From: a virus
Taxonomy: Duplodnaviria > Heunggongvirae > Uroviricota > Caudoviricetes
IMG/VR virus record: IMGVR_UViG_2541047969_000017
Length of the DNA stretch: 40,450 nucleotides
Reading direction: 5' to 3' (one strand)
Positions 1,197 through 35,465 of this stretch are shown piece after piece; within the stretch, counting starts at the first letter, position 1, and each line of letters begins with the position of its first letter. The translations under genes and the position numbers were made by a program. The notes under the pieces are model-generated. The model saw nothing but the letters and a program-made list of their open reading frames with translations. It made no database searches and was not told the DNA's origin.

Positions 1197-4100
1197 CAGG
1201 ACTGTGGCCGGTGTGATGTCCTGTTGCCATCTGCGTCTCGGGGTCTTTCCAGGGTCGCACGCGAGGTGAGTGGCCCTGCACAGAAGGTCGACTGTCAGCC
1301 TCAACCTTTATCTTTCGCCGCTGAGCCTGCTCCACCACCACGCCAAGGATTCTATTTAGTCGATTATAGCTACCCGCTATGTGGCTGTTCCTAAAATGAC
1401 CTCATCGTTGCGCCCTGGTCTCTCCCCAACCGTCAGAACTCGGCGCCACTGGATGAATCCGTTCTATGAGCAGCATCTTAGATTTGAGCATTCTGTCTAA
1501 ATGGTTTGATTGCGTCGGTAACACGTAGATTATCGACAGTATCGAACGCATCCGACTATCTAAACCTGCCCCACACTCCTCGTTACGATCGAATTTTGAC
1601 TTTTTCTAGTTCGTTCTTCTAGATGGAACGATAAACAACTACTGCGAAGGACGCTTGTGTGTTAGTTCAGATATATGAAGTTTAATGGGTAAAGAAAAGG
1701 TACTCTGTGGCCGCTATGAGACGAGTAAATAAAGGCAAATAGTATGGTTCACAGCTTCTTGACTAGTTGATTAAGTCTTTTCCCGAGGAAATTAAAGCTT
1801 GGTCATTATTGATTGTGAATCCGTCTACATGCTTACTCGTTGTATATGCAGGAGGCAGTAGAGCTGGCACTATCATTTGCTGACGTTAGATTGGTCTTCT
1901 ATAATTAAAATCACACAAATTCTGGGCGTCTCGATTACAATTAGTGATCCCAACACCACCGCAGATGCCAGCTCCTGACTCCATATTTGAGCACTTACTG
2001 TTCCAGATAGCTAAGATGCGATGCATCCTATAGGCTGGCTTTTCGCTAATAACGGATAAAGCAGGACTTCATATGTATTAGACGGCAAGATTGACGGCGT
2101 TCTGACCACTGGTTTGTTCAATGCCATACATCGCACTTGCACTGAGATCATGGTTAACAATACGGAAACCAGCCTTCACAGGTGCATCAACATCGCTAAG
2201 GCTGTGATTATATACAGTCTTGCTTTTCCTGTGTAAAGCACAGAAACAAGCATAATGCACTTCCAAGTTATTTGCATGATTACTCCAGGCCTGTTTGGGT
2301 AATTGGCTCTGAGTTCATGCTGCCTGCCATGTTCTATTAACCGCTTCAACTTGTATTCCTTTGTATAGAGCAGCAATTCTCAAATTTCGCCACTGGGGCA
2401 GTCGGGTAATTCAGGATCCTAAAATAATATGTTTATCAGATGTTTCTAATGCATGTTTAACTCACCTACCAGCCGCAAGATTTAAGGTGATATAATATAC
2501 GGTTCAGGCAATAGATACAGTTCATATGCAATCACATTTACGTAAGATGATCCAACTGCTTTGCATGCCTCTGCATGATCCTGTGGCATGCCTTCAACTA
2601 ATGCGATTGGTTCAGAAGCGAATGAAAAAACAGGAATAAATGCCATGTTCGGAGTCTGGAGTTCTTCAGGCCAACTTCTTTCAGGGAGGAAGAAGCATTA
2701 TGCGATGTGTTTATCCAGCCCGTTACCGATCTAGCTAGAACCACCATCTGTCAAAAACCCGCGGGCCGGGGTTAAGCCGTGAGTAATCATCGTTGGAAAG
2801 TGAGAAATCACGCCAAGTGGTACGCGAAATCTTTCAGCATTAGAACGGCGGAGTTCATGGATTGTTATCCTGAAGATACTAAATGGCTTGATCCGACAAA
2901 GTACGCTTTACTTAACCGTCTACGTCCAGATGGCGATAAGATCTCCCGGGGTAGACGGGCTATGATATCGCAGCGGGCTTCTGTAACTAAAGAAAAGGAG
3001 GACGCGTTCGCCGGGACAGCTGGCGGAACGCCTGTATCGTTACCTCTAATTTAGAAAGGCGAGAACACAGACAGATTTCTGCTGGTGATAAAACTCGACC
3101 AATACATGTCGAGTTCATTTAAGAAATCTCATTCGACAACCGATGTCGATGTAGAAGATCCGCACGACAAGTTCGATTTTTATGCACAATAGGATGTGTC
3201 TAATTGTGGGTTACAGGCACTTGAAGAAAGGAACACAAAAATATTGTTCGGTGAAGAAAGTCGTAACACCGGCCAGGGCGTAGCCCGGTGCTTACGCTCA
3301 ATTTGCGTCCGGGCTGAATCTAACGCAAAAACCGTTAATCGGCAGATATCGGTTTGACGGAGCAGCTAGTGTTCAGTGGCGATGCACAATTGTTTTAAAG
3401 GGATGAAGTGACATTCCCTTCATACCTGACGGTATGTAACAATATACAAATTTCGCCGATGTGTGTCTGCGTGTCGTCCAGGATCTTGACAACGGGTATC
3501 GTGACCGAAGAGTACTGTATGTCCATGAAAATATTGGGAGTCAATAAAAACAGATTCTTACCGAAATTGAAGACGGTGAACTGGAACAGTACTTTAGTCC
3601 ATTGATGAAAGTTAAGCTGTATCTCGTAGTGTGGGAGCTACAGCCGCCAGAAGGATTCTTCCACTCCATCACTTTAGTTTCATAAAGCACTGACTCAAGC
3701 GAGTGCCGAGCTCCGGGCCCCGGAATTCGCCATAACTCTCAAGAGCCCTATGGCTGTTTTGTTGAGCCATAAACAGCAGTACGCCCAAATTATGGGCGCG
3801 TGCGCAAGCCCAAGGACAATTGAACCGGGTGCTTTGCTAAGCAGTAATTGTACCCGTGTACGGCTAAATAGCAATCCGGACGTGGGCAGAGTTGGCGGTG
3901 GGTTATTTCAACTGACCGAAGAAGATAGCCTCATGCGTCCGGTTACACGCCGCTTCAAACCTCAAAACGCCATCCCTGATAGACTGGTTCGTAGGTAATC
4001 GGAAGCACTACGCATTATCTTCTTCAGAGATGGCGACGATGAACAGTACTACAGTCGCACGCATCAATGTTCTCCATAATTCACGGACAGCAAGGTCGGT

Positions 4101-5232
4101 GAGAATGATTAAATTGATCGCACAGGTCTCGAACTGCCTCGCTACCAAAGGCACGGAGTTGGCCATCCGTTCCATGATAGGGCGTCTACCTGATATCAGT
4201 CAGGCCAATGGTATGTGGCAGACATCAATGGAATCAACCACCTGGAAAATCGGCTCGGAGATGAGTACCTTCCGAACGACGATGGCCCTAACGGCAGCAG
4301 ACGGTGTTTCAACACGTCATGAGCTCCTCCGGTGTGACCGCAGTGCGTTGATTCTTTATCGGCATAAGCTTGATCAGCTCTAGCCATTAGCTTTTACGAC
4401 TCTATCAGATTCGGTCCCGCGCAAATCTGCCTCATAAAAATGTGCCCGGTCAATTTTTAAGGCAGGGAGAGCAGATGAAACGGAAGGTTTTCAACCGTTT
4501 GAACATTCAGGGTATCCGTCGTTAAAGTCCGAGCATGATGCACAACATAACAACAGTGCACGTCCTACCGGTTCGCAACGGGACCCGTAGACGTCAGAAG
4601 ATGAGTTTTGAACCCGCGAGCCTGAAGTTGTGGTTCAGTATGCCAAATATCGCCAGTGGGTAAGGAAAGAACATGAAGCCTGCGGAAAGTGCAGCATGAA
4701 TAAGGTGCTGGCCCTGTAAGAGATGAATATCCAATTGGGCAGTCCAGTGGGTAATCCGGATCTACTCAAGTGGACTGCTAATGCCAACGATATGCGTCAG
4801 TGCTGGCTGCGCGACGGGCATATTCATAACCAATGCTACGAGATCAAACGCTCTGTGATGAATCATCTGGTGTGCTTTTGTAAGTCCCTGCGCCCATAGA
4901 AGCTCACGGAGAAAGGGGATGAACGTTACCCACGCTATACCCATTTCCTAAGTACGTACGGTGCAGAACATGCGGTCCGGGACATTACAAACAGTTAACT
5001 CTCCGTGGCCGCAAACCAAATCGCGAGTGCATGAAGGGGACCATGGTGTAGCGCTGAAAAGTCACCCAGAACTTCATTCACTTCCGAACCAGGTGTAGTT
5101 CCGGTGAATTAGCGAATGGTTGTTGGGGTTTCTCCCGACAGGGCGTTCCGAGTTCAGCAAAACAGATACGTCAACTCTGCCGAGTTTCACCAGGCTGTGC
5201 AGGAGTAACACGAACACGCTGCTGGCACTTGA

Positions 5233-5514
5233 AAATCTGCAGCCTTCAAAGCCTGGAAAGCCCGTTTGAATGAGGGGGTAAACCCCGAAACCATGCTGGA
5301 AGGTGTGAAACGCTACGCGGGCTGGGTATCTGCGATGGGTAACAGCGGCACACAATTTGTGAAACAGGCTGTCACGTTCTTTGGTCCGGATCGTCATTTC
5401 GAAGAATCCTGGGAAGTTCCTGCAGTATCTGCAGCCAGACGCGAGGACCCGTACTTCAAAGCCAGTTACGACAACGTGGACTACAGCCAGATCCCGGCAG
5501 GATTCAGGGGGTGA
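5233..5514 (+). pseudogene. 3' remnant of a gene with no start codon or RBS (possibly a replication-module protein)
   Basis: Frame opens right after an in-frame TGA at 5230-5232 and reads protein-like sequence (KSAAFKAWKARLNEGVNPETMLEGVKRYAGWVSAMG...) to the stop at 5512-5514. No ATG or RBS; the track's start is a TTG. Its stop is 2 nt before the next gene's ATG, as in an operon. Confidence 0.4.
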
Positions 5515-5516
5515 TT

Positions 5517-6005
5517 ATGAGTCTTTTGAATGAAGTTCAGAAATTCATTGAAGCCCATCCGGGGTGTACTTCTGGAGACATTGCGGATGCTTTTGCTGGT
5601 TACTCACGGCAGCGCGTTCTGCAGTCAGCAAGCAAGTTACGTCAGAGTGGGCGTGTGGCTCACCGTTGTGAAGGAGATACACGCAGACATTTCCCGCGCC
5701 TGACTGAGAGAGCGCAGGAGCCGGAACCACAATCTGTTCGTGAAACCAGACCTGTGCGCAATTTCTATGTCGGCACTAACGACCCCCGGGTGATTTTGTG
5801 CCTGACCCGCCTGGCTGAAGAACTGGAGTCCAGGGGCTTATTCCGTCGAGCTGCAACGGTGTGGATGGAGGCATTCCGTGAAAGCCACTCCCAGCCAGAA
5901 CGAAACAATTTTCTGGCGCATCGTGAGCGGTGCTTACGGAAAAGCAGCAAGCGCGCTGCATCGGGTGAAGAGTGGTATCTGTCAGGGAATTACGTGGGGG
6001 CTTAA
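5517..6005 (+). CDS. Putative regulator with N-terminal wHTH-like region and C-terminal PerC-like motif
   Basis: ATG at residue 3 of track ORF 5511..6005, GGGGG Shine-Dalgarno 6 nt upstream. C-terminal LESRGLFRRAATVW matches the PerC/Pch LExKGLWRRAA signature as recalled. Confidence 0.5.
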   Translation: MSLLNEVQKFIEAHPGCTSGDIADAFAGYSRQRVLQSASKLRQSGRVAHRCEGDTRRHFPRLTERAQEPEPQSVRETRPVRNFYVGTNDPRVILCLTRLAEELESRGLFRRAATVWMEAFRESHSQPERNNFLAHRERCLRKSSKRAASGEEWYLSGNYVGA

Positions 6006-6658
6006 TGAGTAATAAATATTGCCAGGCGCTGGTGGAGCTGCGGAACAAACCAGCCCATGAACTGAAGGAAGTGGGCGATCAGTGGCGCACGCCGGACAAC
6101 ATTTTCTGGGGAATTAACACCCTGTTTGGCCCGTTTGTTCTGGATCTGTTTACTGATGGTGATAACGCCAAATGTGCCGCTTATTACACTGCGGAAGACA
6201 ACGCGCTGGCGCATGACTGGTCAGAACGTCTTGCGGAGCTTAAAGGTGCTGCCTTTGGTAATCCCCCATACAGCCGCGCGAGTCAGCATGAGGGGCAATA
6301 CATCACCGGCATGCGTTACATCATGAAGCATGCCAGTGCTATGCGTGATAAAGGCGGGCGCTATGTTTTCCTGATCAAAGCTGCCACCAGCGAAGTGTGG
6401 TGGCCGGAAGATGCAGATCATATTGCTTTTATTCGCGGGCGTATTGGTTTTGAACTGCCTGCCTGGTTTATCCCGAAGGACGAGAAGCAGGTGCCGACAG
6501 GCGCTTTCTTCGCTGGTGCTATTGCTGTTTTCGACAAGACCTGGAAGGGACCGGCAATCAGCTACATCGGGCGCGATGAACTTGAGGCATGTGGTGAGGC
6601 CTTTCTGGCGCAGGTTCGCCAGCAGGCGGAAAAACTGCTCAGGGAGATGGCGGCATGA
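6005..6658 (+). CDS. Phage Dam-type DNA N6-adenine methyltransferase
   Basis: ATG at residue 12 of track ORF 5972..6658, overlapping the upstream stop (TAATG). Motifs WRTPDNIF, DLFTDGDNA and GNPPY are typical of phage Dam methylases. Confidence 0.85.
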   Translation: MSNKYCQALVELRNKPAHELKEVGDQWRTPDNIFWGINTLFGPFVLDLFTDGDNAKCAAYYTAEDNALAHDWSERLAELKGAAFGNPPYSRASQHEGQYITGMRYIMKHASAMRDKGGRYVFLIKAATSEVWWPEDADHIAFIRGRIGFELPAWFIPKDEKQVPTGAFFAGAIAVFDKTWKGPAISYIGRDELEACGEAFLAQVRQQAEKLLREMAA

Positions 6659-6981
6659 CGACATTAACTCAATGCCAGCAGCAGGTGCTGGATATGCTGA
6701 TTTCTTACCAGAAAGAACGTGGCTTCCCGCCAACCAATCAGGAGGTGGCAACCATGCTGGGATACCGTTCAGTGAATGCAGCGGTGGAGCATCTTCGCGC
6801 ACTGGAGAAAAAAGGCGTCATCACGATAAAGCGTGGCGTGGCCCGGGGTATCACTCTTCATACCGCGGTGAAGGACGACGACAGCGAGGCGGTCGGGATT
6901 ATCCGCTCACTGCTTGCCGGTGAGGAAAACGCAAGGCTGCGTGCAACCCACTGGTTACATGAGAGAGGCCTGAAAGTATGA
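6655..6981 (+). CDS. LexA N-terminal-domain-like DNA-binding protein
   Basis: Start overlaps the upstream stop (ATGA). Sequence QQQVLDMLISYQKERGFPPTNQEVATMLGYRSVNAAVEHLRALEKKGVI aligns with the LexA winged-helix domain; no peptidase domain follows. Confidence 0.75.
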   Translation: MTTLTQCQQQVLDMLISYQKERGFPPTNQEVATMLGYRSVNAAVEHLRALEKKGVITIKRGVARGITLHTAVKDDDSEAVGIIRSLLAGEENARLRATHWLHERGLKV

Positions 6982-7367
6982 AGCTGATTCTGCCGTTTCC
7001 GCCCAGCGTGAACACGTACTGGCGACACCCCAACAAAGGGGCGTTTGCAGGTAAGAGCCTGATAAGCGCGGCGGGGCGCAAATTCCAGAGCGCGGCGTGT
7101 GCAGCAATAGTTGAGCAGTTACGTCGTCTGCCAAAACCAACGTCGGCACCTGCTTCAGTGGAGATCGTGTTGTTTCCTCCGGATAACCGGATCCGCGATC
7201 TGGACAACTATAACAAGGCGCTGTTTGACGCCCTGACCCACGCGGGTGTGTGGGAGGACGACAGTCAGGTGAAAAGAATGCTGGTTGAGTGGGGACCGGT
7301 TATCCCGAAAGGGAAGGTCGAGATCACTATCAGTAAGTATGAGAAACCGGCGGGTGCAGCCGCCTGA
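6978..7367 (+). CDS. rusA: Holliday junction resolvase RusA
   Basis: N-terminus MKLILPFPPSVNTYW is the RusA signature; 129 aa; start overlaps the upstream stop. Confidence 0.9.
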   Translation: MKLILPFPPSVNTYWRHPNKGAFAGKSLISAAGRKFQSAACAAIVEQLRRLPKPTSAPASVEIVLFPPDNRIRDLDNYNKALFDALTHAGVWEDDSQVKRMLVEWGPVIPKGKVEITISKYEKPAGAAA

Positions 7368-9648: not shown

Positions 9649-10095
9649 TTAAGGTTTTAATTCATCAAGACGTTGTTGGATAGTGTTTTTGCTTGCGTTG
9701 TCTGTTATAGCCATTTGTTGTACTTGCCCCATTGCCATTTGAGTTTCCATCCACATATCGGCCCACACTTTTGTATCGTTATTAACTTGAGCGATAGTAA
9801 ATCTGACTTTTGATACCGGGGTTGTTGAATAGGCATTGCCGATTAACATTTGTCCAAAAACGGCAGAGCCGCCTTCCAGTTCTTTACCACATATAACACT
9901 GCTGTTATCCGCGTTGTAAATTATCAACCCTCTACTATTGCAGTAATTCACAAGGGCATCTTTGACTTTATCTTTTGTCGTATTTTGATAAACCCCCTCA
10001 GGTTTTCCTGATTGAGTTTTCTTTATCAATGGTACGGAAGAAGTACAACCTGAAATGATAGTTGCGCTAAGTAATAGTACAGTTATTTTATTCAT
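9649..10095 (-). CDS. Putative lipoprotein (moron between Q and the late operon)
   Basis: Minus-strand track ORF, 148 aa; signal peptide with lipobox (MNKITVLLLSATIISGC); lower GC than neighbours; antisense to the flanking phage genes. Confidence 0.65.
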   Translation of the reverse strand: MNKITVLLLSATIISGCTSSVPLIKKTQSGKPEGVYQNTTKDKVKDALVNYCNSRGLIIYNADNSSVICGKELEGGSAVFGQMLIGNAYSTTPVSKVRFTIAQVNNDTKVWADMWMETQMAMGQVQQMAITDNASKNTIQQRLDELKP

Positions 10096-10569: not shown

Positions 10570-10719
10570 TGGCGGTTTCCTGCTGTGAAAATGGGCGGCT
10601 GGTGGGTGTTGGTAGCACCTGCCAGCCATTCGCTCATGCTTACTGGTCACAAGCGAACCACGGCCCACTGCTTTAGCGCAAAAGCAGAGTGAGCCTACCA
10701 GAGTTACGCTTACTGATCC

Positions 10720-11772
10720 ATGAAAAATACTGTAAGAATAAACAGTGTTGATTTAATCAACGCTGATTGCCTGCATTTTATTCAGTCCCTGCCTGATGAT
10801 TCCATTGACCTGATTGTTACCGATCCGCCGTACTTCAAGGTGAAACCCAACGGCTGGGACAATCAGTGGAAAGGGGACGAAGATTACCTTAAGTGGCTGG
10901 ACCACTGTCTGGCCCAGTTCTGGCGGGTGTTAAAACCTGCCGGAAGCCTTTACCTGTTCTGTGGGCATCGTCTGGCATCTGATATTGAGGTCATGATGCG
11001 TGAACGTTTCAACGTGCTTAACCATATCATCTGGGCGAAGCCGTCCGGACGTTGGAATGGGTGTAATAAAGAAAGTCTGCGCGCATATTTTCCTGCCACA
11101 GAGCGCGTTCTGTTTGCTGAACATTACCAGGGGCCATATCGCGGCAAAAGTGACGGCTATGCGGCAAAAGAAAGGGAACTCAAACAGCACATAATGGCAC
11201 CGCTGATATCGTATTTCAGGGATGCTCGTGCCGAACTGGGTATAACGGCAAAACAAATTGCCGAAGCCACAGGTAAGAAAAATATGGTTTCCCACTGGTT
11301 TGGTGCCAGTCAGTGGCAGTTGCCGAATGAGGCTGACTATCGGAAGTTACAGGCACTGTTTTCCCGTATAGCGGCAGAGAAGTTTCAGGAACAACAACTG
11401 GAACAACCACACCACCAGCTGGTGGCATCTTATGATTCACTGAATCGCAAATATTCTGAATTGCTGGATGAGTTTAAATCTCTCCGGCGCTATTTCTCCG
11501 TATCAGTCTCCGTGCCTTATACCGATGTCTGGATGCATAAACCCGTTCAGTTCTACCCGGGTAAACATCCGTGTGAGAAACCGGCGGATATGCTCAGGCA
11601 AATAATCAATGCCAGTAGTCGACCTGGTGATCTGGTTGCTGATTTTTTTATGGGATCCGGTTCCACAATAAAAGCAGCAATGGCGCTGGGGCGTCGGGCC
11701 TTAGGTGTTGAGCTTGAGTCAGAGCGGTTTAACCAGACAGTGAAAGAGATAAACGAGCTGGTGGGGAAATAA
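10720..11772 (+). CDS. DNA methyltransferase (N6-adenine or N4-cytosine, DPPY-type), no restriction partner
   Basis: Track ORF, 350 aa; motif [10 protein letters not shown] near the N-terminus and motif I FFMGSGST near the C-terminus (beta-class order). No restriction endonuclease ORF nearby. Confidence 0.85.
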
Positions 11773-34145: not shown

Positions 34146-34236
34146 TAGACTGGCCCCCTGAATCTCCAGACAACCAATATCACTTAAATAAGTGATAGTC
34201 TTAATACTAGTTTTTAGACTAGTCATTGGAGAACAG

Positions 34237-34602
34237 ATGATTGATGTCTTAGGGCCGGAGAAACGCAGACGGCGTACTACACAGGAAAAGATCGCTATCG
34301 TTCAGCAGAGCTTTGAACCGGGAATGACGGTCTCCCTTGTTGCCCGGCAACATGGTGTGGCAGCCAGCCAGCTATTTCTCTGGCGTAAGCAATACCAGGA
34401 GGGAAGTCTTACTGCTGTGGCTGCCGGAGAACAGGTCGTTCCTGCCTCTGAACTTGCTGCCGCCATGAAGCAGATTAAAGAACTCCAGCGTCTGCTCGGC
34501 AAAAAAACGATGGAAAATGAACTCCTTAAAGAAGCCGTTGAATATGGGCGAGCAAAAAAGTGGATAGCGCACGCGCCCTTATTGCCCGGGGATGGGGAGT
34601 AA
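34237..34602 (+). CDS. insC: IS2 transposase OrfA (InsC)
   Basis: ATG at residue 16 of track ORF 34192..34602; [56 protein letters not shown] matches InsC as recalled. Confidence 0.9.
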
Positions 34603-35465
34603 GCTTCGTCAGCCGTTGTCTCCGGGTGTCGCGTGCGCAGTTGCACGTCATTCTCAGACGAGCCGATGACTGGAAGGACGGCCGCCGCAGCCGTCACACG
34701 GATGATACGGATGTGCTTCGCCGTATACACCATGTTATCGGAGAGCTACCCACATATGGTTATCGTCGGGTATGGGCGCTGCTTCGCAGACAAACAGAAC
34801 TTGATGGTATGCCTGCGATCAATGCCAAACGTGTTTACCGGATCATGCGCCAGAATGCGCTGTTGCTTGAGCGAAAACCCGCTGTACCGCCATCGAAACG
34901 GGCACATACCGGCAGAGTGGCTGTGAAAGAAAGTAATCAGCGATGGTGCTCTGACGGGTTTGAGTTCCGCTGTGATAACGGAGAAAAACTGCGGGTCACG
35001 TTCGCGCTGGACTGCTGTGACCGTGAGGCACTGCACTGGGCGGTCACAACGGGTGGCTTCGACAGTGAAACAGTACAGGACGTCATGCTGGGAGCAGTGG
35101 AACGCCGCTTTGGCAGCGAGCTTCCGGCGTCTCCAGTGGAGTGGCTGACGGATAATGGTTCATGCTACCGGGCGAATGAAACACGTCAGTTCGCCAGGAT
35201 GTTGGGACTTGAACCGAAGAACACGGCAGTGCGGAGTCCGGAGAGTAACGGAATAGCAGAGAGCTTCGTGAAAACGATAAAGCGTGACTACATAAGTATC
35301 ATGCCCAAACCAGACGGGTTAACGGCAGCAAAGAACCTTGCAGAGGCGTTCGAGCATTATAACGAATGGCATCCGCATAGTGCGCTGGGTTATCGCTCGC
35401 CACGGGAATATCTGCGGCAGTGGGCCAGTGATGGGTTAAGTGATAACAGGTGTCTGGAAATATAG
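34560..35465 (+). CDS. insD: IS2 transposase OrfB (InsD), DDE integrase-like
   Basis: Track ORF, 301 aa, beginning [30 protein letters not shown]; overlaps insC in the -1 frame. Confidence 0.9.

Follow-up and report, generated by a model that had tools for sequence, protein, structure and literature searches.

Genes homologous to those considered here have been described in two lambdoid prophages: orf39-orf40-dam-orf42-orf43 of phage SfV, and yfdO-yfdN-yfdM of the cryptic prophage CPS-53 (KpLE1) of Escherichia coli K-12. The virus record IMGVR_UViG_2541047969_000017 (40,450 nt; analyzed at its full length and referred to as the window) contains a 1.47-kb block of three genes at positions 5517-6981, encoding a YfdN-type regulator, a phage-type DNA adenine methyltransferase, and a protein consisting only of a LexA-type DNA-binding domain (referred to as ORF1, ORF2, and ORF3, respectively; ORF, open reading frame). 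SfV possesses the same genes in the same order, and its orf42 product is 98% identical to ORF3, whereas SfV is Mu-like-tailed and this prophage carries a lambda-type gpA terminase and a J tail tip. CPS-53 also has the same genes and order, and its YfdM is identical to the first 89 residues of ORF2; K-12 yfdM is cut off just past the NPPY motif, and the 3' portion of this gene is missing from K-12 along with all that follows it. The feature is already known, being annotated in RefSeq and in phage records back to SfV. A preliminary description of this DNA regarded the block as regulatory cargo. On the other hand, our analysis suggested that the block most likely consists of standard delayed-early genes of SfV/CPS-53/mEp460-type lambdoid prophages, located in the early rightward operon.

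The replication gene, ORF1-ORF3, and rusA are encoded on the plus strand. The intact 3' end of a replication-initiation gene (its last 82 codons; PHROG replication-protein families, E 5e-38) was found at 5266-5514; the UTI89 replication gene maps onto 4696-5514 of the window, of which the portion upstream of ~5232 is scrambled (see below). ORF1 (162 amino acids (aa); open reading frame list and Pfam PerC) is located at 5517-6005, ORF2 (217 aa; Pfam Dam PF05869 and TIGR01712) at 6005-6658, and ORF3 (108 aa; Pfam LexA_DNA_bind) at 6655-6981, followed by the rusA Holliday-junction resolvase gene at 6978-7367 (Pfam RusA, 56 bits) and, further downstream, by genes for a KilA-N protein, a DUF968/HNH protein, and antiterminator Q (Pfam). 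The placement in the nin region that had been proposed was, therefore, correct, since the three genes are flanked by the replication gene on one side and by rusA, KilA-N, DUF968, and Q on the other. The stop codon of the replication gene (5512-5514) is 2 nt ahead of the ATG of ORF1 (junction TGA-tt-ATG); the subsequent junctions, read from the sequence, are TAATG for ORF1/ORF2 (6003-6007) and ATGA for both ORF2/ORF3 (6655-6658) and ORF3/rusA (6978-6981), and a G-rich Shine-Dalgarno-like run is present 5-9 nt before every start of ORF1-ORF3. These stop/start overlaps agreed with the earlier proposal of coupled junctions, and probably mean that the three genes are translationally coupled. RefSeq chooses an alternative GTG start of ORF1 at 5511, which gives 164 aa; the length of 162 aa is counted from the ATG. 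Long antisense and out-of-frame ORFs at 6221-6802 (minus strand) and 6411-6923 (plus strand) were set aside as by-products of GC-rich coding sequence.

Neither a sigma-70-like promoter nor a terminator-like site was detected on the plus strand between 5240 and 7360, and a scan of the whole window against Rfam gave no RNA family. The GC content of the block (0.52-0.56) is typical of the host. The features by which a moron is recognized, namely, its own promoter/terminator, atypical composition, and a discrete insert, were absent from the block.

The block is widely distributed. Of the 5426 complete E. coli genomes, 1610 (~30%) contained at least 80% of it at an identity of 95% or higher, and 2675 contained some part of it, nearly all at 95-99% identity. 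The carriers span all pathotypes and include K-12 CPS-53 (as yfdN/yfdM); for the whole region, the best genomes among the matches listed were uropathogenic and extraintestinal pathogenic (UPEC/ExPEC)-type strains, such as UTI89 and NU14. Matches were obtained with 51 phage records and extended over 80% or more of the query in 41; the records include those of Shiga toxin (Stx) 2c- and Stx2a-converting phages, mEp460, 1720a-02, and Shigella phages. The same gene order is annotated in UTI89, SfV, mEp460, Lys8385Vzw, and Stx2 phages. In other relatives, the genes are found separately: dam is missing, with yfdN followed by the LexA-like gene, in phage 2H10, in a prophage of Citrobacter, and in a number of E. 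coli genomes; yfdN is missing in cdtI, in which dam is followed by the LexA-like gene; and mEp390 possesses only the LexA-like gene of the three. The LexA-like gene is directly coupled to rusA by ATGA in every relative inspected, including mEp390 and the Citrobacter prophage, the latter of which retains synteny and the overlapping junctions at 65% identity. The three genes assort independently, the only constant being the LexA-like gene followed by rusA, and only dam behaves as an optional insert. Since yfdN and dam are each independently missing in relatives, the view of the three genes as one functional unit was not supported.

Because of the lack of its own promoter, the wide distribution, and the independent assortment, the block may be regarded as ordinary early-operon equipment, and is described by us as a mosaic of conserved early-operon genes rather than a moron-type cargo cassette. 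The designation as regulatory cargo was abandoned on the same grounds: no own promoter or terminator, host-typical GC content, a chain of overlapping genes, and presence in 1610 of 5426 genomes. Transcription would proceed in the order of the replication gene, yfdN, dam, the LexA-like gene, rusA, KilA-N, DUF968, and Q; as a consequence of this early rightward transcription, the three proteins would be made on infection or induction, and not as a lysogenic-conversion cassette. Upstream control was read from relatives because the scrambling of the window removed the immunity region and early promoters.

Several observations weigh against this assignment. The early promoters and the immunity region are themselves unreadable in the window. 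The SfV record annotates a putative dam promoter within the yfdN homologue; its hexamers are weak (TTGCGC/TACGGA), and the -35 hexamer in the window is worse (TGGCGC). A putative Dam of the Stx phage Phi24B, which may or may not be homologous to ORF2, was reported to be expressed in lysogen cultures (PMC3342100). The number of GATC sites in the window (134 versus 156 ± 13 expected) indicates neither avoidance nor enrichment. Furthermore, Glu45 of ORF3, one of the operator-contacting residues (see below), varies among distant relatives and, therefore, the operator may differ from the SOS box.

ORF1 is identical to K-12 YfdN from the cryptic prophage CPS-53 at 155 of 164 residues (95%) and is its orthologue; RefSeq labels it "yfdN: PerC family transcriptional regulator". 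The PerC-like C-terminal motif previously noted in this protein was confirmed by a match to Pfam PerC (PF06069) above the gathering threshold (35.6 bits; cut-off 22.6), which covers residues 98-149 (nt 5808-5963) and profile positions 5-56 of 90. A pairwise BLASTP with PerC of enteropathogenic E. coli (EPEC) E2348/69 (89 aa, from pMAR2) gave 39% identity over 44 aa (E 2e-6), and hhalign a probability of 95.6% over 55 columns. The likeness is centered on GLFRRAATVW/GFYRRAADRW, a motif that is invariant in the YfdN family. Judging from these alignments, the C-terminal domain is a genuine but distant relative of PerC. The AlphaFold2 model (mean predicted local distance difference test score (pLDDT), 73.5; 83-91 as block means in the stretch 1-60) shows a winged helix made up of three helices and a beta hairpin (residues 1-60; nt 5517-5696), then a disordered linker (residues 63-85), and then the three-helix PerC-like domain (residues 90-147). 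Foldseek matched the N-terminal part to winged helices of the MarR/ArsR/SmtB type (~2 Å root-mean-square deviation (rmsd) over ~60 residues), in agreement with weak matches to hidden Markov models (HMMs) of the MarR family. A search of PDB sequences with ORF1 gave nothing significant. A match to the NCBIfam model of ANR (AraC negative regulator) was too weak (18.5 bits; cut-off 32) to serve as a clue to a protein-contact module. ORF1 is well conserved, with 45 invariant positions in 17 sequences at identities down to 68%.

The single-domain architecture of PerC and PchABC (~90-105 aa) is not that of ORF1, with its 162 aa, winged helix, and linker; because of the added N-terminal winged helix and the distant similarity to PerC, ORF1 is a two-domain variant, and not a PerC/Pch look-alike. 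A tblastn search with the PerC-like domain against plasmids (E ≤ 0.01) did not return perC of the EPEC adherence factor (EAF) plasmid among the matches listed. Prophage-borne PchABC (group-1 Pch) clearly activate ler, whereas PchD is at the level of the vector control on ler, and PchD and PchE have little effect on the enterocyte effacement locus (LEE) (PMC5931665, PMC6265319, PMC7369912). K-12 yfdN figures in this literature only as "the K12 unique PerC homologue", for which no activity is reported, and as a gene removed by way of precaution from a reporter strain (PMC5931665). The activation of LEE, which had been suggested for the first protein, was not substantiated in view of the distant similarity to PerC, this Pch literature, and the occurrence of yfdN in all pathotypes, including K-12. 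ORF1 would instead be a winged-helix DNA-binding regulator, with the PerC-like helical domain used for effector contacts.

ORF2 scored well above the curated cut-offs of Pfam Dam (PF05869; 156 bits, cut-off 28.1) and TIGR01712, "phage N-6-adenine-methyltransferase" (255.6 bits, cut-off 97.05), and this verified the earlier identification of the second gene product as a Dam-family adenine methylase. The catalytic motif, (D/N)PPY, is present as NPPY at residues 86-89 (nt 6260-6271). A PDB sequence search with ORF2 found nothing significant. No cognate nuclease was found near ORF2, the neighbors of which are yfdN, the LexA-like gene, and rusA; because PADLOC gave only MTase_II/methyltransferase models without a nuclease partner, ORF2 is an orphan enzyme. 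PADLOC matches for ORF3 and the KilA-N protein were weak and were set aside. The phage-encoded M.EcoVT2Dam, which may or may not belong to the HMM family of ORF2, was reported to target GATC (PMC6602927), and by this family analogy ORF2 is inferred to methylate GATC adenines. It would do so on rapidly replicating phage DNA, and methylation would be complete before packaging; full methylation would then guard the packaged DNA against methylation-sensitive restriction enzymes cutting at GATC and against MutH. The escape from restriction proposed in the preliminary description is plausible, yet redundant in dam+ hosts. In several RefSeq/PHROG annotations, the phage Dam gene is labeled "phosphoadenosine phosphosulfate reductase" (phrog_33262), which looks like a misnomer spread from fusion proteins.

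ORF3 matched Pfam LexA_DNA_bind (PF01726) along the complete profile (69 bits; 1-65 of 65), while its score with the full-length LexA model TIGR00498 (70.8 bits; positions 1-91 of 203) was below the cut-off (110.95). The protein ends at residue 108, leaving no space for the S24 peptidase/dimerization domain (Ser119, Lys156), which is absent, and no cryptic peptidase was found in another frame or downstream, where the next frame is rusA; the description of the third protein as a LexA DNA-binding domain without the peptidase was, thus, correct. Residues 2-69 of E. coli LexA are 50% identical to ORF3, and the AlphaFold2 model of ORF3 superimposed on LexA in the complex with DNA (3JSO) at 1.3 Å rmsd over 68 residues. 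In this model, the winged helix spans residues 1-68 and includes the recognition helix (39-52; nt 6769-6810); it is followed, after a short low-confidence hinge, by a tail of two helices (75-87 and 93-103). Among the LexA residues that contact DNA, Ser39, Asn41, Ala42, Glu44, and Glu45 (PMC3091678), ORF3 retains four (S39, N41, A42, and E45), with Val instead of Glu at position 44, and the wing residues R64-G65-I66 are also conserved. Ala88-Gly89 resembles the cleavage site of LexA; Gly is replaced by Lys or Asn in close relatives and the catalytic domain is absent, and a conserved Ala-Gly self-cleavage site is lacking in ORF3. In E. coli, Salmonella, Citrobacter, and Hafnia, members of the family measure 106-108 aa, 42 positions are invariant in 15 sequences, and the pattern of the tail is retained in relatives that share 38-49% identity and measure 104-135 aa.

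Since the S24 domain is absent, the dimerization of ORF3 must use another surface, and the model points to the conserved two-helix tail as its inferred replacement. ORF3 would bind LexA-type CTGT-containing palindromes as a dimer via the LexA-like recognition helix; with no Ser119/Lys156, it would not undergo RecA-stimulated self-cleavage, and could act after the host LexA is destroyed. An uncleavable occupant of SOS boxes, or LexA mimic, is a reasonable idea for ORF3. A search of the literature found no experimentally defined function for YfdN-type or LexA-domain-only proteins.

Potential binding sites were scanned with the 20-nt SOS consensus and with its core pattern, exact CTGT-N8-ACAG. 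The window contains no site with three or fewer mismatches to the consensus. Two exact core matches were found against 0.43 expected; since 8 of 100 shuffled sequences also reached two, this is not significant alone. The palindrome TACTGTAAGAATAAACAGTG (10728-10747), located within codons 3-9 of a late methylase gene (10720-11772), is the sole exact core match outside the scrambled zone. The CTGT...CAG at this locus is kept in Morganella, Klebsiella, P27, Stx2c, and Stx2a phages, with the Morganella protein being 64% identical. In this phage lineage, TACTGTAA(A/G)AATAAACAGTG is present where the late methylase gene begins. TACTGTAAGAATAAACAGTG is, as far as its letters tell, a speculative candidate site for the host LexA or ORF3. 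A near-consensus LexA box (17/20), TACTGTTTTTACATACAGTA, is located within the coding sequence of the S24-type repressor of UTI89 (2700-2719 of the locus) and mEp460 (3546-3565 of the locus), which corresponds to 2200-2219 of the window, in the scrambled zone. The early regions (~10-16 kb) of UTI89, mEp460, cdtI, and Stx2c each contain 2-3 exact core matches versus 0.1-0.3 in shuffled sequences; the box loci of UTI89, mEp460, and others are near-identical homologues, and these recurrences are not independent. No exact core match was found in the ORF3-positive Citrobacter prophage and mEp390, and 2H10 and Lys8385Vzw have only a poor 11/20 site. The SOS-like boxes of this lineage are, therefore, a lead, not evidence. 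In all relatives checked, a further sequence, GGCTGTAAGTAACCACAGAG, occurs within the Rha/antirepressor-like gene, ~100 nt from its start (six loci: 27344, 4774, 5107, 5081, 4780, and 5731); this 11/20 match to the SOS consensus is probably just conserved coding sequence.

Other explanations of the block were weighed against the assignment to the early operon. It is very unlikely that the trio reprograms the host as cargo, with the PerC-like protein acting on LEE promoters, the LexA-like protein on SOS boxes, and Dam against restriction. The Pfam PerC match and the GLxRRAAxxW motif common to ORF1 and EPEC PerC, the activation of ler by prophage-borne PchABC (PMC5931665, PMC6265319), and the LexA-like recognition helix of ORF3 are consistent with such a role, but ORF1 is of the YfdN type, with an extra winged helix, and matches only residues 6-60 of PerC. 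PchD and PchE have little effect on LEE and yfdN is without reported activity (PMC5931665, PMC6265319). The block is also carried by ~30% of complete E. coli genomes, K-12 and UTI89 among them, no promoter or terminator of its own was detected, and its three genes assort independently. The opposite extreme, that the two small DNA-binding proteins are functionless remnants in decay, one of a lexA that was truncated and the other of a perC fragment that was fused, appears extremely improbable: different genera share the lengths and many residues (for ORF3, 15 sequences with 42 invariant positions; for ORF1, 17 with 45), synteny and overlaps are held in Citrobacter at 65% identity, and the folded parts gave confident models. 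In favor of this view, K-12 CPS-53 retains only fragments, with a truncated yfdM and no annotated LexA-like gene, and frameshifted copies exist in databases.

With regard to ORF3 alone, a phage-internal timing regulator that, similar to gp6 of the tectivirus GIL01, is produced early and activates or gates a later phage promoter from a palindrome of its own, maybe together with host LexA boxes inside the phage, would be conceivable but is unlikely. This analogy draws on the precedent of gp6, with the late promoter P3 beside LexA boxes (PMC6182141), the strong SOS-like boxes of the lineage (TACTGTTTTTACATACAGTA and TACTGTAA(A/G)AATAAACAGTG), and 2-3 copies of CTGT-N8-ACAG per early region versus 0.1-0.3 in shuffled sequences. 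However, the loci bearing the boxes are near-identical homologues and not independent, ORF3-positive phages without a box exist (and 2H10 and Lys8385Vzw reach only 11/20), both good boxes are inside coding sequences, which is odd for the site of an activator, and the late genes of lambdoid phages are already under Q. A broader and still doubtful proposal, to which we give some more weight as a tentative idea, is that ORF3 and its relatives of 104-135 aa are widespread uncleavable LexA mimics of induced lambdoid prophages, which re-occupy LexA-type operators after the RecA-driven destruction of LexA, thereby resetting or hijacking the SOS program, with the YfdN-type protein as a possible partner regulator. 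The targets of such a mimic could be host SOS genes, LexA-controlled antirepressors or colicins of competitors, and the boxes of the phage's own repressor and late methylase genes.

We return to the assignment to the early operon and its upstream context. A stretch of ~4 kb (~1200-5232 of the window) aligned with the UTI89 prophage without real gaps at ~63% identity, while both flanks were 95-100% identical. The substitutions are equally distributed over the codon positions (~35% each), all 12 types are similarly frequent, and the ratio of transitions to transversions (482:912) is near the random value of 1:2. No ORF longer than 117 aa remains. Among complete E. coli genomes, one record matched this stretch in the 80-90% identity band, and the rest at 60-80%. 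In UTI89, the genes occupying the counterpart are those for the repressor, cro, YmfL, and Rha, together with the replication gene for two thirds of its length. This stretch looks artificially scrambled or randomized, and not naturally diverged.

Further features of the prophage were recorded. A second DNA methyltransferase gene (350 aa; 10720-11772, plus strand; Pfam N6_N4_Mtase) is the first gene past the Q region, before the holin gene, and has counterparts in SfV orf48, cdtI orf56, and P27 L24. M.EcoGI/GII are a family of non-specific adenine methylases (PMC5778455), and the late methylase may belong to them, judging from its size, its class, and its occurrence in one of the phages named for this family; it looks like a better candidate than ORF2 for broad protection. 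A hairpin (CTGCTTT-AGCGCA-AAAGCAG; 10668-10687) without an Rfam match is located just 5' of this gene, and phage relatives from E. coli, Klebsiella, and Morganella have conserved it. An AT-rich ORF of 148 aa (GC ~0.39; 9649-10095, minus strand), positioned between Q and the late genes, carries a lipoprotein signal (MNKITVLLLSATIISGC...) and has no Pfam match; it is a much better candidate for a moron or cargo gene than ORF1-ORF3. An IS3-family transposase gene (rve, HTH_21; 34192-35465, plus strand) is inserted in the tail-fiber region.

In its present form, the finding is of little importance, the genes being among the commonest prophage genes of E. coli. The residual interest lies in two very common phage DNA-binding proteins, of the YfdN type and LexA-domain-only type, which are functionally uncharacterized. 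If ORF3 were an uncleavable binder of SOS boxes, a phage layer would be added to SOS control in about one of every three E. coli strains, among them lysogens of Stx2 phages, in which the timing of the SOS response governs toxin release.

The comparison with known systems differs between the three proteins. EPEC PerC and PchA/B/C of enterohemorrhagic E. coli (EHEC), activators of LEE1/ler, share with ORF1 a helical segment containing the GxxRRAAxxW motif; however, PerC (89 aa) and group-1 Pch (104 aa) are each single-domain proteins, whereas in ORF1 (162 aa) a winged helix and a linker precede this segment, and the C-terminal third of PerC has no counterpart, with only residues 6-60 of PerC being matched. 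YfdN-type proteins are not known to act on LEE (PMC5931665). ORF2 shares the curated HMM, NPPY, orphan status, and prophage location with the phage Dam-like family (TIGR01712/PF05869), and differs from the host Dam, which belongs to another sequence family (no match of ORF2 to PF02086). A passage in PMC7556043 cites HP1 as carrying a Dam-like gene, the product of which may or may not belong to the HMM family of ORF2. E. coli LexA resembles ORF3 in the winged helix (50% identity, 1.3 Å superposition, and the shared contacts S39/N41/A42/E45), and differs in possessing the S24 domain with Ser119/Lys156. The closest, and sole, studied analogue of ORF3 found in the literature appears to be gp6 of GIL01, a tectivirus of Bacillus thuringiensis: an early protein consisting only of a LexA DNA-binding domain, 44% identical to the host LexA, which recognizes its own palindrome and activates the late promoter P3 beside host LexA boxes (PMC6182141). 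Both proteins are LexA DNA-binding domains of temperate phages without autocleavage, with similar identities to the host LexA (44 and 50%, respectively). On the other hand, gp6 comes from an unrelated phage type and host and has no equivalent of the two-helix tail, and while gp6 activates a late promoter, the late genes of this phage are controlled by Q antitermination.

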